NCBI GenBank assembly: GCA_003558985.1
Contig: PWNJ01000038.1
Span: forward strand, 4,990-68,989
Origin: a candidate division CSSED10-310 bacterium
Lineage (GTDB): Bacteria; CSSED10-310
DNA length: 64,000 bases
Direction of reading: 5' to 3'
Under the pieces are notes generated by a model, which did no database searches, was not told the DNA's origin, and worked only from the letters and a program-made list of their open reading frames with translations. Shown here piece after piece: positions 50,117 to 64,000 of this stretch (position 1 is its first letter; each line of letters starts with the position of its first letter). The position numbers were made by a program, and so were the translations under genes.

Positions 50117-50165
50117 TTGACAAAAATAAAAAAACAGGATAAAATTGTATGTGTTTGGTGGAGGG
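50117..50165 (+). promoter_or_regulatory. Strong sigma70-type promoter (TTGACA-17 nt-TAAAAT) and RBS in front of the T3SS gene set
   Basis: TTGACA at 50117-50122, TAAAAT at 50140-50145, and GGTGGAGGG at 50157-50165 before ATG 50174. The region is embedded in about 180 bp of A-rich DNA. Confidence 0.6.
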
Positions 50166-50173
50166 ATTGCCTG

Positions 50174-50869
50174 ATGAATTTCGGTGAACATATTCAAAGT
50201 GAATTTATAAACCAGTTTTCAAATCTTTTACACACGTATGAAAACGCAAATATAAATGCCAATCATAAGGAATGCCAGAGGATTCGTGAGTTCACAGTTA
50301 AAACTTTGAAAATGATAGATGCATATCCTTTCTATGTAATCGAAAACATACACCCGGAATGGATTAGACAAAAACTGGAGAGTTTCAATAACTGCTGCAG
50401 GTCAAAGTTATTAAAAAGCATTGCGGAGTATGACAGCGTTAAAGTTCGCAATATAGTTAAGTCATTTCAATTTAAAACAACTGGAACTTGCATCCGTAAT
50501 TGTTGCCACAATAGCACTTTGACCAAACTTATAGATGGATGGCCGATCATGACAAGTCGAACACGGTTTTCAAACAGTTCATGGAAACAATTGCCGTTTA
50601 TGAAATGGGAACGCATTGAATATCTTGTTCAGTGTCTGAAGAAAAAGTATCCGGGCACTTCGCTAGCAGAATTGTATTACTGCGAATGGAATCAAATGAG
50701 ACAATCAGACAAAAATACAGCTCTGATATGGCTTGAACATAAGTTGATGCCTGATCAAGGTCGGCTTTTTGTCGAACAGATTAAAAGCATGCCACACATA
50801 AAAAATCGTACGAACAATTATTGTGATTCGATTCTTCAAAAAGTGATGGTAGGAGGATTCAAAAAATGA
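50174..50869 (+). CDS. Hypothetical protein, first gene of the T3SS operon (position compatible with SctK)
   Basis: 231 aa, Cys-containing, no family recognisable by eye. Gene order only. Confidence 0.3.
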   Translation: MNFGEHIQSEFINQFSNLLHTYENANINANHKECQRIREFTVKTLKMIDAYPFYVIENIHPEWIRQKLESFNNCCRSKLLKSIAEYDSVKVRNIVKSFQFKTTGTCIRNCCHNSTLTKLIDGWPIMTSRTRFSNSSWKQLPFMKWERIEYLVQCLKKKYPGTSLAELYYCEWNQMRQSDKNTALIWLEHKLMPDQGRLFVEQIKSMPHIKNRTNNYCDSILQKVMVGGFKK

Positions 50870-51480
50870 TTAATGCAGAACCAAGAATTATACTTAAAGA
50901 ATCCAGAGATGCACACAACAAGGCTGACAAGATTATTGATTCAGCTAAATCTGAAGCGCATTCAATAATCAAAAACGCTTTGGATGAAGCGGATAAAATT
51001 ACTGAAAATGCACATATCCAGGGTGTTAAATCAGCCAAGAAGGAGGCTCTTAAACATATTGTTATGGCAAATAATCATCGGCGAAATACAGAACAGGCTG
51101 TCTTGCCTGAGTTAGTTAACTTGTGCATGGATACGGTGTACTTATTTTTATCGCAGTATCAGAAAAGTCATAAAGATTGGATTGTTCTACGAGTGAAAAA
51201 AGGTTTGGAGTATTTACAGGATCAAAGAACGGTAAAAGTACTTTTGAATCCTGATGATTTATCATCACAGGTTGACAAGCTGGAGATGATTTCCAAAACG
51301 ACAGTTTTGAATGGTTCAGTAAAACTTGTTGCGGATAACAGAATCAGTAAAGGTGATTGTCTGTTTGAATCGCCGGAGGGTTCCATAAACGCGACTTTAA
51401 AAGACAGCATTGATTCGATTCGTTCAATTTTGCTTAAAAGTAAAACCAGCTTTGATACGGAAGGAGATATTTATGAGTAA
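50866..51480 (+). CDS. sctL: FliH/SctL-like stator protein of the T3SS ATPase
   Basis: N-terminal Ala/Glu/Lys helical region and a C-terminal FliH-like block (VKVLLNPDD...VADNRISKGDCLFESPEGSINATL). Confidence 0.45.
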   Translation: MINAEPRIILKESRDAHNKADKIIDSAKSEAHSIIKNALDEADKITENAHIQGVKSAKKEALKHIVMANNHRRNTEQAVLPELVNLCMDTVYLFLSQYQKSHKDWIVLRVKKGLEYLQDQRTVKVLLNPDDLSSQVDKLEMISKTTVLNGSVKLVADNRISKGDCLFESPEGSINATLKDSIDSIRSILLKSKTSFDTEGDIYE

Positions 51481-60980: not shown

Positions 60981-61077
60981 TTGTTAAACTCAACAGTTTG
61001 ACATTACAAAGGTTTATATGGTGAAATTACGAAGTTATTTGTTGTATACTAGTTATGGTTGAGGTTGGGATTTTAAG

Positions 61078-62898
61078 ATGGGTGAAAGACTGGGAGAAAT
61101 ATTGGTTCGTGAGGGGTTTATAACAACCGAGCAGCTTGATAATGCTTTAAAGTATCAGGCTAAACATGGCGGCAGATTAGGTAGCGCTGTTATCAAGCTG
61201 AAATTTGCAACTGAAGAAGACATCGCTGAAATTCTCTCAAATCAGTTCGGTGTACCTTCGGTTAACCTTGCAAGTTTCGATATTGAGGAATCATTACTGA
61301 AATTAATTCCTGCAGAAGTTGCCAGAAAATATTTGTTGATACCAATCAGCAGAACGGGCGCCTCATTAACGCTTGCTATGGCTGATCCATCAAATGTGTT
61401 CGCTCAGGATGACATAAAATTCATGACTGGATACAATGTCGAACCAGTTGTGGCATCTGAAAATGCAATCACTAAAGCGATAGAAAGATATTATGGCTCA
61501 GGTAAAAGTCTGGCTGTTGCATCAACAGAAATTGATACCCATGAAAATGGCCGCTCAAAGTATATGGATGACTTTGATGACTTTGACAGTGATATTTCCG
61601 ATCAGTCCGATGATATGGCGGCAGAGTTTATTAATGTCGAAGATTTTGATGATTTGGTTTCTGGCGCCGTAGACGAACTGGAAGTTGTAGATGAAGAGGA
61701 TGAAGATGCCATTGTTTCCGTTGAAGACCTTGAGGCGCCCATAGTAAAACTGGTAAATGGAATTCTGATTAAAGCCATTAATATGGGTGTCTCTGATATT
61801 CATTTTGAACCTTACGAAAAGTCTTTTCGAGTTAGAACCCGATTGGATGGTGTACTTAGAAAAGAACTTGGATTACCATTGAAAATAAAAGATGCCGTAA
61901 CATCGCGTGTCAAGATCATGGCTAATTTGGATATTTCAGAAAGACGTCTGCCTCAGGATGGCCGTATTAAGATGCGCCTGGGACCCAAACGCGAAATGGA
62001 TTTCAGAGTGTCGACTCTGCCGACACTGTTTGGCGAAAAAGTTGTTTTGAGATTACTGGATAAAACTAATTTGCAGACAGATATGACCCAATTGGGGTTC
62101 AGTGAAAGACAATTGGCAGAGTTTCAGGAGGCCATCCATAAACCATATGGAATGTGTCTGGTTACTGGACCGACAGGTTCCGGTAAAACAACAACGCTTT
62201 ATTCAGCATTGACCCAGTTAAACAGCATCAGTGATAACATTATGACTGCTGAAGACCCTGTTGAATACAATCTAATGGGTATTAATCAAGTTCAAATGCA
62301 TGATGCCATTGGATTAAACTTTGCCGCATCGCTAAGATCATTTTTGAGACAAGACCCGGATATCATCATGGTCGGAGAAATTCGCGATTTTGAAACTGCA
62401 GAAATTGCTATTAAGGCAGCCCTTACCGGACATATGGTGCTTTCAACAATCCATACCAATGATGCCCCGACGACTATTAACCGGTTGCTGAATATGGGAG
62501 TGGAACCATTTCTGGTTGCTTCATCTGTTATTTCTATTGTGGCCCAGCGGCTAGCGCGAACTGTCTGCCCCAAATGCGCTGAGCCCGTTCAGGTTCCACC
62601 AGAAGCACTAATACATATTGGCTTCATGGAACATGAAATTGGTACATTTGATGTAAAAAAGGGAAGGGGATGCTCGTACTGCTCACAAACCGGATATAAA
62701 GGACGTGTCGCTCTTTTTGAAGTTTTGACGATTACGGATGAGATTCGTGAATTAATACTGAGAGGCGCTTCTGCGATGGAGATCAGAGAAACGGCTGTAG
62801 CACTTGGTATGCAGACATTGCGTGGATCGGGACTTGAAAAAATTAGAGAAGGCAGGACAACCCTTGAGGAAATCGTTCGCGTAACCTACGGAAATTAG
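61078..62898 (+). CDS. pilB: Type IV pilus / type II secretion assembly ATPase (PilB/GspE family) with an N-terminal T2SSE_N domain and an acidic insert
   Basis: LGEILVREGFITTEQLDNAL N-domain, Walker [14 protein letters not shown], Asp/His boxes, and a C-terminal tetracysteine (CPKC...CSYC). Confidence 0.8.
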   Translation: MGERLGEILVREGFITTEQLDNALKYQAKHGGRLGSAVIKLKFATEEDIAEILSNQFGVPSVNLASFDIEESLLKLIPAEVARKYLLIPISRTGASLTLAMADPSNVFAQDDIKFMTGYNVEPVVASENAITKAIERYYGSGKSLAVASTEIDTHENGRSKYMDDFDDFDSDISDQSDDMAAEFINVEDFDDLVSGAVDELEVVDEEDEDAIVSVEDLEAPIVKLVNGILIKAINMGVSDIHFEPYEKSFRVRTRLDGVLRKELGLPLKIKDAVTSRVKIMANLDISERRLPQDGRIKMRLGPKREMDFRVSTLPTLFGEKVVLRLLDKTNLQTDMTQLGFSERQLAEFQEAIHKPYGMCLVTGPTGSGKTTTLYSALTQLNSISDNIMTAEDPVEYNLMGINQVQMHDAIGLNFAASLRSFLRQDPDIIMVGEIRDFETAEIAIKAALTGHMVLSTIHTNDAPTTINRLLNMGVEPFLVASSVISIVAQRLARTVCPKCAEPVQVPPEALIHIGFMEHEIGTFDVKKGRGCSYCSQTGYKGRVALFEVLTITDEIRELILRGASAMEIRETAVALGMQTLRGSGLEKIREGRTTLEEIVRVTYGN

Positions 62899-62919
62899 TG
62901 AGGAATATAATGGCAACTG

Positions 62920-64000
62920 TATCGATGCCGAATTTGTTAAAAACCTTGATTGAAAGACAGGCCACCGACTTGCATATAACCACAGGAACACACCCGCAAA
63001 TACGGATTCATGGATTATTAACACCAATCAAAGAAATACCGCCGCTAACACCAAAAGAAACAAAACAGTTGGCGTATTCAGTATTAACAGATACACAAAA
63101 ACATATTTTTGAAGAACAGAAAGAGCTGGATTTCTCTTTCGGAGTGAGAGGGCTTAGCAGGTTTCGAGCAAACATTTATAGCCAGCGTTCAGCCGTTGCA
63201 ATTGCAATCAGAACAATTCCTTTTCGAATCTTAGGCTTTGATGAACTCGGTTTACCCAAAGTCACCAAGGAGTTTTGCAAAAAACCCAAAGGCCTCATTT
63301 TGATTACAGGCCCAACTGGATGCGGCAAATCAACCACTCTAGCAGCAATTATTGACAAGATAAACAGAGAATACCAAAAGCATATTGTTACCATTGAAGA
63401 TCCTATTGAGTATTTGCATCATCATCACAGTTGCGTGGTTAATCAAAGAGAATTGTTTGCAGATACTCATTCATTTGCAAAAGCGCTGAAATCCGTATTA
63501 AGACAGGATCCGGATGTCATTCTGATAGGTGAAATGCGCGATTTGGAAACGATAGAATCTGCGATTCGATGTGCTGAAACAGGCCATCTGACGTTTGCAA
63601 CTTTGCATACAAATTCTGCATTACAAACAATTAACAGAATTATCGATGTGTTTCCCTCACATCAGCAACCTCAAATTCGAGCTCAGTTATCGTTTATTCT
63701 GGAAGGAATTGTATGTCAATCACTACTTCCACGACGTGATGGCCAGGGGAGAGTGCTTGCGGCAGAAGTGATGGTACCCAACGATGCTGTTCGAAATCTG
63801 ATAAGAGAGGATAAAATACATCAAATATATTCGACTATGCAAACAGGACAAGCGACTTTTCACATGTGTACTATGAATCAGTCTTTGGCGAATCTTTATT
63901 TTCGGCGAATGATATCACTGAATGAAGCGCTGGGAAATTCTTCAAAACCGCAGGAATTGGAGCAGTTAATTGCCAAAGGCGGTCCAGCAATGAAACCTCA
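62920..64000 (+). CDS. pilT: Twitching-motility-type retraction ATPase PilT (3' end cut by the window edge)
   Basis: DLHITTGTHPQIRIHG, Walker A ITGPTGCGKSTTL, and GEMRDLETIESAIRCAETGHLTFATLHTN. No stop before position 64000. Confidence 0.8.

Follow-up and report, generated by a model that had tools for sequence, protein, structure and literature searches.

According to the usual account of their evolution, type III secretion systems (T3SSs) derive from the flagellum, passing through a secretin-less intermediate found in the Myxococcales before reaching the injectisome and no T3SS is known to export without SctV/FlhA and SctU/FlhB. The closest described system to the one reported here is the T3SS* of Myxococcus xanthus, also known as the ‘Myxo’ non-flagellar T3SS (Abby and Rocha, 2012; PMC3459982, PMC10433427, PMC12075869), which comprises SctD, SctJ, SctI, SctQ, SctRSTUV, SctN, SctL and LcrH-like chaperones and has no secretin, needle or translocon (PMC10433427). 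A different kind of departure is seen in the Chlamydiales, in which the T3SS genes are spread over several loci and sctU-sctV lie away from sctR-S-T (PMC3459982). Here, we analyze a T3SS operon located at 50.1-59.7 kb, on the plus strand, of a 64-kb stretch of DNA from a candidate division CSSED10-310 bacterium (assembly GCA_003558985.1, contig PWNJ01000038.1, positions 4,990 to 68,989; the whole stretch is hereafter called the window), in which the genes of SctU, SctV, SctD and the secretin SctC are missing. With a probability of about 60%, we consider this region to be the main locus of a non-flagellar, secretin-less T3SS-like machine whose U-V-D block lies elsewhere in the genome, split as in the Chlamydiales. 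A relocation of the block is the most likely reading, given that the remaining genes, the promoter and the catalytic motifs are intact over deep divergence and that known T3SSs need SctV and SctU.

The operon consists of 15 tightly packed or overlapping genes, which were assigned to families by Pfam and NCBIfam scans of the open reading frames (ORFs); the span of the T3SS genes identified by Pfam is 50117-59673 (+). They follow the order K-position gene, SctL, a small gene, SctF-like, TPR chaperone, SctI, SctJ, SctN, SctO, P-position gene, FHA::SctQ, FliO-like, SctR, SctS and SctT, and five of them are named by their position: K (the first gene), E (105 amino acids, aa), F (114 aa), O (157 aa) and P (175 aa). 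Among the genes by which an injectisome is recognized (Abby and Rocha, 2012; TXSScan), sctN, sctJ, sctQ, sctR, sctS and sctT are found in this one cluster, and neither the pair sctU and sctV nor the secretin sctC is found within the 64 kb. In particular, a Pfam search of almost all of the substantial, non-overlapping ORFs in the window gave no match to FHIPEP, Bac_export_2 or Secretin. SctU and SctV were not detected by tblastn in the window or in seven related loci, using queries from Photorhabdus (L002) and from an Acidobacteriota relative (L090), nor by profile hidden Markov models (HMMs; 72 SctU/FlhB and 90 SctV/FlhA sequences) among all stop-to-stop ORFs of at least 30 aa, and no fragments or pseudogene remnants of sctU, sctV, secretin or sctD genes were found in the 64 kb. 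An earlier reading of this DNA, made from the letters alone (the initial annotation), had noticed that sctU, sctV and sctC are lacking from the T3SS set, which Pfam confirms for all three genes and tblastn and profile HMMs further confirm for sctU and sctV. The same reading had listed sctD as absent: no sctD gene is indeed present in the window, but a FHA domain of the SctD-cytoplasmic kind is, fused to SctQ, and this domain is the sole Yop-YscD_cpl match of the window.

Both T3SS* and the system of the window are non-flagellar, have neither a secretin nor a recognizable translocon, and include SctJ, SctI, SctQ, SctR-S-T, SctN, SctL and LcrH-like TPR chaperones. Furthermore, both are vertically conserved over long distances, which argues for a function, and the ‘short’ Myxo locus shares with the window the absence of SctD. 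However, the Myxo loci encode both SctU and SctV, with SctD as well in the long locus, whereas the window locus lacks all three and has only SctR, SctS and SctT of the gate. Unlike the Myxo loci, that of the window shows FHA fused to SctQ, a FliO-like gene and a SctF-like candidate; the Myxo system is described as lacking SctF.

As regards the Chlamydiales, the likeness extends to the TPR chaperone of the window, which matches the CdsG model (E 1.3e-8, below the curated cutoff), but in that group a secretin (CdsC) and a full SctD (CdsD) are encoded elsewhere in the genome. Several low-GC loci carrying only sctU-sctV (L096-L098, L105, L109 and L130) were considered as possible CSSED10-310 loci and rejected, being taken as chlamydial from their gene order; they form a separate, closely related group, with SctV proteins 66-70% identical to that of L096, and in L096 and L097 no sctR, sctS, sctT or sctN occurs within 10 kb of sctU-sctV.

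The Yersinia virB/virC operons are ordered (E)-F-G-...-I-J and N-O-P-Q-R-S-T, with K-L adjacent. With this order, the gene order of the window agrees block for block, as for Ysc/Psc injectisome operons in general, and SctJ, SctI and SctQ of the window score best against injectisome models. The differences are that no sctC-sctD precede the E-F-G block, no sctU follows sctT and there is no sctV; moreover, the window has a FliO-like gene, and we know of no description of such a gene in injectisome operons. This gene is the sole flagellum-like item of the cluster, in which no flagellum-specific genes (FlgB/C, FliE, FliG, MotAB and others) were found. A likeness to the flagellum does exist in that homologues of FliH, FliI, FliN, FliO, FliP, FliQ and FliR are arranged in flagellar order and that relatives of the wider family described below have a FliK-like Flg_hook gene, but FliF is replaced by a short lipoprotein, SctJ, and the window locus has neither FlhA/FlhB nor genes for FliG, FliM, the rod, the hook, the filament or the motor. 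The locus was therefore rejected as a flagellar remnant, since SctJ, SctI and SctQ fit injectisome models better and Flg, FliG and FliM genes are missing.

The same arrangement occurs in five other CSSED10-310 organisms, six including that of the window. These main-lineage loci come from GCA_029973845.1 together with two Logan assemblies (L081/82/83), GCA_016931515.1 (L084), GCA_016927515.1 (L085), a Logan assembly (L087) and two JGI metagenomes (L088/89), L084 and L085 being published CSSED10-310 metagenome-assembled genomes (MAGs) from Zodletone spring (PMC8248873). The conserved order is ksgA-bacA-SIR2-tldD-pmbA-(Endonuc_Holl)-T3SS operon-clpX-pilB-pilT-pilC(-pilS-pilR), and no sctU, sctV, sctC or sctD was found in the loci of these relatives within the stretches seen. 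The closest relatives of the window SctN are 47-76% identical to it and include proteins labelled candidate division CSSED10-310; in an analysis of SctN distances the lineage stands apart as a cluster at roughly the same distance from every other one. A scan of genome contigs gave no relative above 49% identity. Within the lineage, identity to the window proteins is 47-76% for SctN, 47-66% for SctR, 50-81% for SctS, 49-61% for the SctF-like protein, 30-69% for the TPR protein, 64-84% for ClpX and 80-95% for PilB. The presence of the same locus with the same flanks across such diverged relatives indicates that the T3SS locus is old, vertically inherited and intact. In four relatives, a minus-strand gene of ~265-280 aa without Pfam family is located immediately 5' of the T3SS promoter (L081 5467-6261, L084 5383-6186, L085 5539-6357, L087 4575-5414); neither the window nor L088 has this gene.

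Since core genes are missing and the source is a metagenome-assembled genome, a decaying remnant or an assembly artefact has to be considered, but either is extremely unlikely. The same junctions are present in independent NCBI, Logan and JGI assemblies, on which ground an artefact was rejected, and all of the ORFs are intact, with the promoter, lipobox, Walker motifs and FHA residues conserved.

The left flank of the operon, after tldD/pmbA, is an Endonuc_Holl gene (49516-49986, -), and the right one is clpX (59727..60980, +), as the initial annotation had it when it named an unrelated minus-strand gene and clpX as the two bounds. Its start of the T3SS at 50117 has to be revised: the TTG at this position, with which the longest ORF begins, is the -35 hexamer of a promoter-like site of sigma-70 type (TTGACA-17 nt-TAAAAT; 50117..50145, +) that lies 5' of the operon and has 11/12 consensus matches in a promoter scan, and ATG 50174 is the most likely start of the first gene. 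Five of the six lineage loci can be aligned at the TTGAC hexamer, at a AAATGTAAAA stretch upstream and at a stretch rich in A/T around -10. At the other end, the sctT-clpX junction of ~54 nt is common to the lineage loci and holds a promoter-like site for clpX (TTGACG-17 nt-TACAGT; 59670..59698, +), found in the promoter scan, of which TTGAC is invariant and the -10-like TAnAGT/TAAAAT is aligned in the five lineage loci compared; here too, the TTG that starts the longest clpX ORF, at 59670, is the -35 hexamer. The conservation of this promoter in the spacer implies that clpX is a separate transcription unit and that the T3SS operon ends at sctT, and clpX was rejected as a member of the operon. 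ClpX itself is canonical (zf-C4_ClpX, E 1.1e-16; AAA_2, E 7.4e-33), with the GYVG pore loop, the RKH loop and the VGF (IGF-type) loop, and in the main-lineage loci its gene is directly 3' of sctT, with no adjoining clpP.

The operon of the window is a member of a wider environmental family, found in Acidobacteriota, bacterium HR11 and planctomycete-like contigs, whose hallmarks are FHA::SctQ and FliO. No published description of such a T3SS family was found. The sister branch is represented by a CSSED10-310 MAG of a different (novel) order (L086), in which the T3SS core is the same and the genomic surroundings differ. More than 100 proteins are related to the SctN of L086 (P0105) at 60-64% identity, with labels that include Acidobacteriota, Thermoanaerobaculia, bacterium HR11 and ‘Deltaproteobacteria’. 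In an Acidobacteriota MAG (L090) the genes are ordered sctJ-(326 aa)-sctL-sctN-sctO-sctP(Flg_hook)-FHA::sctQ-fliO-sctR-S-T-sctU-sctV-[FHA/YscD_cpl gene], an order that bacterium HR11 (L173) repeats from sctL onward, and two ENA contigs (L091/92) show TPR-(67 aa)-(79 aa)-TPR-sctI-sctJ-(337 aa)-sctL-N-O-P-FHA::Q-fliO-R-S.... In three loci from a metagenome scan (L095, L099 and L129) sctU-sctV adjoin sctR-S-T, and in L099, a JGI contig, a SctF-like gene, a TPR gene and a FHA/YscD_cpl gene adjoin sctV.

With the family (L086, L090, L091/L092, L099 and L173), the window shares FHA::SctQ, a FliO-like gene before sctR, a TPR chaperone, SctI, SctJ and the order N-O-P-Q-FliO-R-S-T, as well as a SctF-like protein with the C-terminus RH(D/E)AAMSA(I/V)RN(I/L)K, while its SctN is only 44-45% identical to those of L090 and L091. 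In the window, as in the family, FHA is N-terminal on SctQ and a FliO-like gene is directly upstream of sctR; the third mark of the family, sctU-sctV-(FHA SctD-like) after sctT, is lacking both in the window and in the main lineage, where the locus ends at sctT. No secretin was seen in the annotated parts of four family loci (L090, L091, L099 and L173), whose genomes were not surveyed, and its absence is probably a family trait and not a peculiarity of the window. A search with the window FHA::SctQ reached only ~10 full-length representative clusters, since the protein diverges fast, the other matches being different FHA proteins. The metagenome scan with SctV of L090 mostly followed the universal FHIPEP motif to unrelated FlhA/SctV proteins, the best identity among the matches listed being 48%. 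Two members show additional genes nearby: in L086 (3294-7821) a sigma-70 family gene is located inside the T3SS cluster and a 345-aa protein with a MshEN domain, the N-domain of PilB/MshE-type ATPases, is encoded just upstream, and in L129 (425-1642) a gene for a patatin-like phospholipase, a possible effector, lies just 5' of the family T3SS locus (SctF-like, SctI, SctJ ... R-S-T-U-V).

These relatives suggest how the gap may have arisen. In L090 and L173, sctT is immediately followed by an uninterrupted block of sctU, sctV and the FHA SctD-like gene, so that one deletion or translocation would remove exactly these genes. Deletion in the ancestor of the main lineage, the rest being kept for a different or reduced function without the SctU/SctV gate, would agree with the lack of any SctU/SctV trace in the window or in seven related loci, with a breakpoint that falls exactly at the end of sctT, where the spacer is tight and conserved, and with T3SS proteins evolving faster in this lineage than in the L086 branch; furthermore, the loss of a terminal block is a simple event. 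We nonetheless regard a true loss as rather unlikely, given that export without SctV/FlhA is, by established knowledge, not known in any T3SS or flagellum and that the full set of 15 genes has been kept over deep divergence, along with the promoter and the ATPase motifs, as in a working secretion machine. If the lineage were truly devoid of SctU, SctV and SctD, which we consider about as unlikely, then either its mechanism would be new to T3SSs or its gate or outer-membrane route would come from another apparatus, such as a flagellum or the adjacent type IVa pilus.

A split system with the U-V-D block at a second site, one of the two options that the initial annotation had put forward beside shared outer-membrane functions, is preferred here, and several points weigh against it. 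This second locus is hypothetical, as no sctU, sctV or sctD of the main lineage was found; none of them occurs in the 50 kb upstream within the window, nor in the ~5-7.5 kb beyond clpX (pilB-pilT-pilC-pilS-pilR) of the relatives. Mechanistically, it is simpler to delete a block from the end of an operon than to move it, and the T3SS proteins of the lineage evolve faster than those of the sister branch (SctN is 44-52% identical to that of L090 in the main lineage and 61% in L086), which could reflect changed constraints after a loss. Finally, it is mainly gene order that underlies the naming of the K, E, F and P genes.

The missing gate could also be supplied by FlhA and FlhB of a separate flagellar cluster in the same genome. 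A paper on CSSED10-310 MAGs mentions flagellar genes, and flagellum-like traits are kept in the operon (FliO) and in the relatives of the family (the Flg_hook/FliK-like gene). However, the KEGG flagellum call of that paper may be the T3SS operon itself, as FliH, FliI, FliN and FliO/P/Q/R map to the flagellar pathway, no CSSED10-310-labelled flagellar FliI paralogue occurs among the best 120 matches, and there is no established case of two systems sharing gate subunits, all of which make a borrowed gate very unlikely.

The neighbourhood of the operon raises a further possibility, compatible with the other readings. PilB, the extension ATPase of a type IVa pilus (61078..62898, +; T2SSE, E 2.9e-138), with its MshEN N-domain (E 1.4e-27), and the retraction ATPase PilT (62910..64000, +; T2SSE, E 6e-49), truncated by the window end, are both encoded in the window, as expected of a type IVa pilus, and in the relatives pilB is followed by pilT-pilC-pilS-pilR. 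The secretin-less T3SS might use the secretin or filament of the adjacent pilus to bring cargo across the outer membrane. In favour of this, the synteny T3SS-clpX-pilB-pilT-pilC-pilS-pilR is kept in six organisms, a MshEN-domain protein is encoded just upstream of the T3SS genes of L086, and in Myxococcus xanthus a Tad-like pilus (Kil) recruits the needleless T3SS* and the two work together (PMC12075869). On the other hand, clpX with its own promoter lies between the two gene sets, the unrelated housekeeping genes of the left flank (ksgA, bacA, SIR2, tldD/pmbA) are equally conserved, which makes the synteny unspecific, gene calling yielded no pilus genes in three family loci outside the lineage (L090, L091 and L173), and no pilQ was seen near the locus. 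We consider such a composite machine improbable. The initial annotation had placed pilB/pilT immediately after the T3SS, overlooking clpX and its conserved promoter between them, and had seen in this adjacency a hint of a shared outer-membrane function, a weak argument, given the intervening clpX and an adjacency conserved only inside the lineage. The pilB/pilT neighbourhood is conserved synteny and gives no specific support to secretin sharing or functional coupling.

Considering the components in the order of the operon, the first gene (50174..50869, +), directly upstream of sctL and thus in the SctK position, encodes a protein of 231 aa with no Pfam or NCBIfam match. Its orthologues are present in all of the lineage loci (200-278 aa, 21-38% identity), the comparison with the gene in the same position of the wider family is not significant (hhalign E 0.048), and a single-sequence AlphaFold 2 (AF2) model, with a predicted local distance difference test (pLDDT) score of 45, is too poor for a structure search. 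SctL/FliH, the ATPase stator (50866..51480, +; Pfam FliH, E 6.6e-12), is followed by a small protein of ~105 aa in the SctE position (51473..51790, +), a possible co-chaperone by position, without family match and with 30-44% identity within the lineage; L091 has a 67-aa gene there.

The next gene (orf134; 51804..52148, +) encodes the SctF-like candidate of the needle/rod family, of ~114 aa, so named from its position and its conserved C-terminus, SN.MR.RHDAAM.AIRNIK; it is 49-61% identical across the main-lineage loci. Over 31 aa of this C-terminus, 58% of the residues are shared (E 2e-8) with a 79-aa protein of L091, encoded between the 67-aa gene and the TPR gene upstream of sctI-sctJ, and the two proteins were called orthologues. 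The SctF-like gene together with the small gene and the TPR chaperone mirrors the sctE-F-G arrangement, and the SctF-like family may be weakly paralogous to that of SctI (hhalign E 3e-4, with a probability of only 39%). No needle-family match was obtained by a PDB profile search, by Pfam on all members or by PDB and Pfam searches with the 79-aa orthologue of L091, and the AF2 single-sequence model (pLDDT 55) is too poor for a structure search.

The TPR chaperone (52176..52616, +; Pfam TPR_19, E 2.8e-19) is of T3SS type, SctG/CdsG- or LcrH/SycD-like, with NCBIfam matches to LcrH_SycD (E 3.9e-9), CdsG (E 1.3e-8) and SctY (E 1.8e-6) that are all below the curated cutoffs. The protein encoded downstream (52613..53011, +) is tentatively assigned as a SctI-like inner rod protein from weak but concordant matches to Pfam T3SS_basalb_I (E 0.0017) and NCBIfam T3SS_SctI (E 0.014); the best PDB match of the family profile is MxiI (E 0.27), aligned at the C-terminal end, and the orthologue of L081 has a weak T3SS_needle_F match. 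The inner-membrane ring lipoprotein SctJ (53014..53802, +; Pfam YscJ_FliF, E 3.9e-21) is far better matched by III_secr_YscJ (E 6.5e-39) than by FliF (1.5e-8) in NCBIfam, and has a VTGC lipobox and a C-terminal transmembrane segment (residues 218-236). In the ATPase SctN (53786..55135, +; ATP-synt_ab, E 6.1e-86; T3SS_ATPase_C, E 3.3e-10) Walker A (AAGTGKTT), Walker B (LLIMDS) and the GERGRE motif are all intact.

Downstream of sctN, the coiled-coil stalk protein in the SctO/FliJ position (55132..55605, +; 157 aa) has no family match in the window, and its orthologues in L086, L090, L091 and L173 have YscO-like or FliJ Pfam matches. The following protein of 175 aa (55607..56134, +) occupies the SctP/FliK position and might be a substrate-specificity switch, on weak evidence besides this position: no Pfam family was assigned to it in six lineage members, the gene in the P position of the wider family is Flg_hook, and the hhalign comparison of lineage and family gives only E 0.05, which is not significant.

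The FHA::SctQ fusion (56143..57654, +; 503 aa) combines an N-terminal FHA domain (E 1.7e-16; Yop-YscD_cpl, E 9.2e-5) with a C-terminal SpoA/FliN domain (FliMN_C, E 2.2e-15; NCBIfam SpaO_YscQ, E 2.8e-15), has no transmembrane segment, and is also present in L081, L084, L085, L087, L088, L090, L091 and L173. Residues G90, R91, S105, H108, S126, N128 and G129 do not vary across eight sequences of the lineage and the family and correspond to the canonical GR...SxxH...S.NG phosphothreonine-binding positions; judging from this conservation, the FHA domain is probably a working phosphopeptide reader, beyond a mere SctD-like fold. Then come a FliO-like single-pass membrane protein (57668..57973, +; Pfam FliO, E 2e-5; NCBIfam FliO_TIGR, E 1.1e-5), matched in the same position upstream of sctR in L085, L087, L088, L090, L091 and L173, the export-gate core protein SctR/FliP (57939..58634, +; Pfam FliP, E 5e-62), SctS/FliQ (58655..58921, +; Pfam Bac_export_3, E 1.3e-25) and, as the product of the last gene of the operon, SctT/FliR (58921..59673, +; Pfam Bac_export_1, E 3.8e-48), with no sctU after it. 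In L081 (14993-15970), one 325-aa Bac_export_1 product replaces separate sctS and sctT, a possible fusion or an artefact of gene calling.

In the machine that we propose, a constitutive-looking promoter would drive the operon, SctJ would form the inner-membrane ring, SctRST the core of the gate, possibly assembled with the help of FliO, and SctL, SctN and SctO the ATPase complex, with FHA::SctQ as the platform. SctI and the SctF-like protein would be early substrates, handled by the TPR chaperone, after which cargo would be exported across the inner membrane, and the docking of the platform may be regulated by phosphothreonine binding of the FHA domain. With no secretin of its own, such a machine would resemble the T3SS* of Myxococcus.

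Other features of the window lie outside the operon. A lipoprotein of 120 aa (37625-37987), with an STAGC lipobox and a Pfam T2SSG match of E 4e-4, is the GspG-like lipoprotein that the initial annotation had placed at 37.6 kb; the identification is plausible for both of these features, but the score of 20.8 bits is just under the Pfam cutoff of 21, and the protein is not a normal pseudopilin, since it has no prepilin leader. Its gene is followed by that of a 701-aa protein without Pfam family (37997-40102), which was considered as a hidden SctV and rejected, as no FHIPEP match was obtained by Pfam, tblastn or HMM. The region 3486-18536, which encodes four very large proteins (987, 789, 2012 and 982 aa) with NHL-repeat beta-propellers, DUF2298 and PMT_2 (glycosyltransferase-like membrane) domains and is adjoined by a gene of glycosyltransferase family 2, resembles a cluster for glycosylation of the envelope, of an unusual kind. 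At 2857-3261, the gene of a PIN-domain protein (E 1.4e-8) overlaps an antisense ORF and may belong to a toxin-antitoxin module. Further T3SS-like loci, from other phyla (L015, 914-17572, and also L006, L008 and L029) mix injectisome and flagellar parts: by Pfam, L015 has SctJ, SctI-like, FliG-like (FliG_M/FliG_C), FliM-like and FliK-like genes, an embedded sigma-70 factor and a 727-aa FHA-PEGA-TPR protein. In these four loci no SctU/SctV was found within 10 kb of sctN, and in L029, whose genome is labelled complete, sctJ and sctN appear split by frameshifts.

To the intermediate of the Myxococcales, the FHA::SctQ/FliO family adds a second group of mixed traits, in which injectisome-type SctJ and SctI occur together with flagellum-type FliO and a FliK-like protein and with FHA fused to SctQ, and which spans several environmental phyla. 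The fusion suggests that phosphothreonine signalling may control the docking of the sorting platform. As for the CSSED10-310 lineage, if the U-V-D block is found elsewhere in the genome, this would be a further split T3SS like that of the Chlamydiales, and ordinary in this respect; if it is truly absent from the genome, the operon would be the first conserved T3SS derivative without an export gate.

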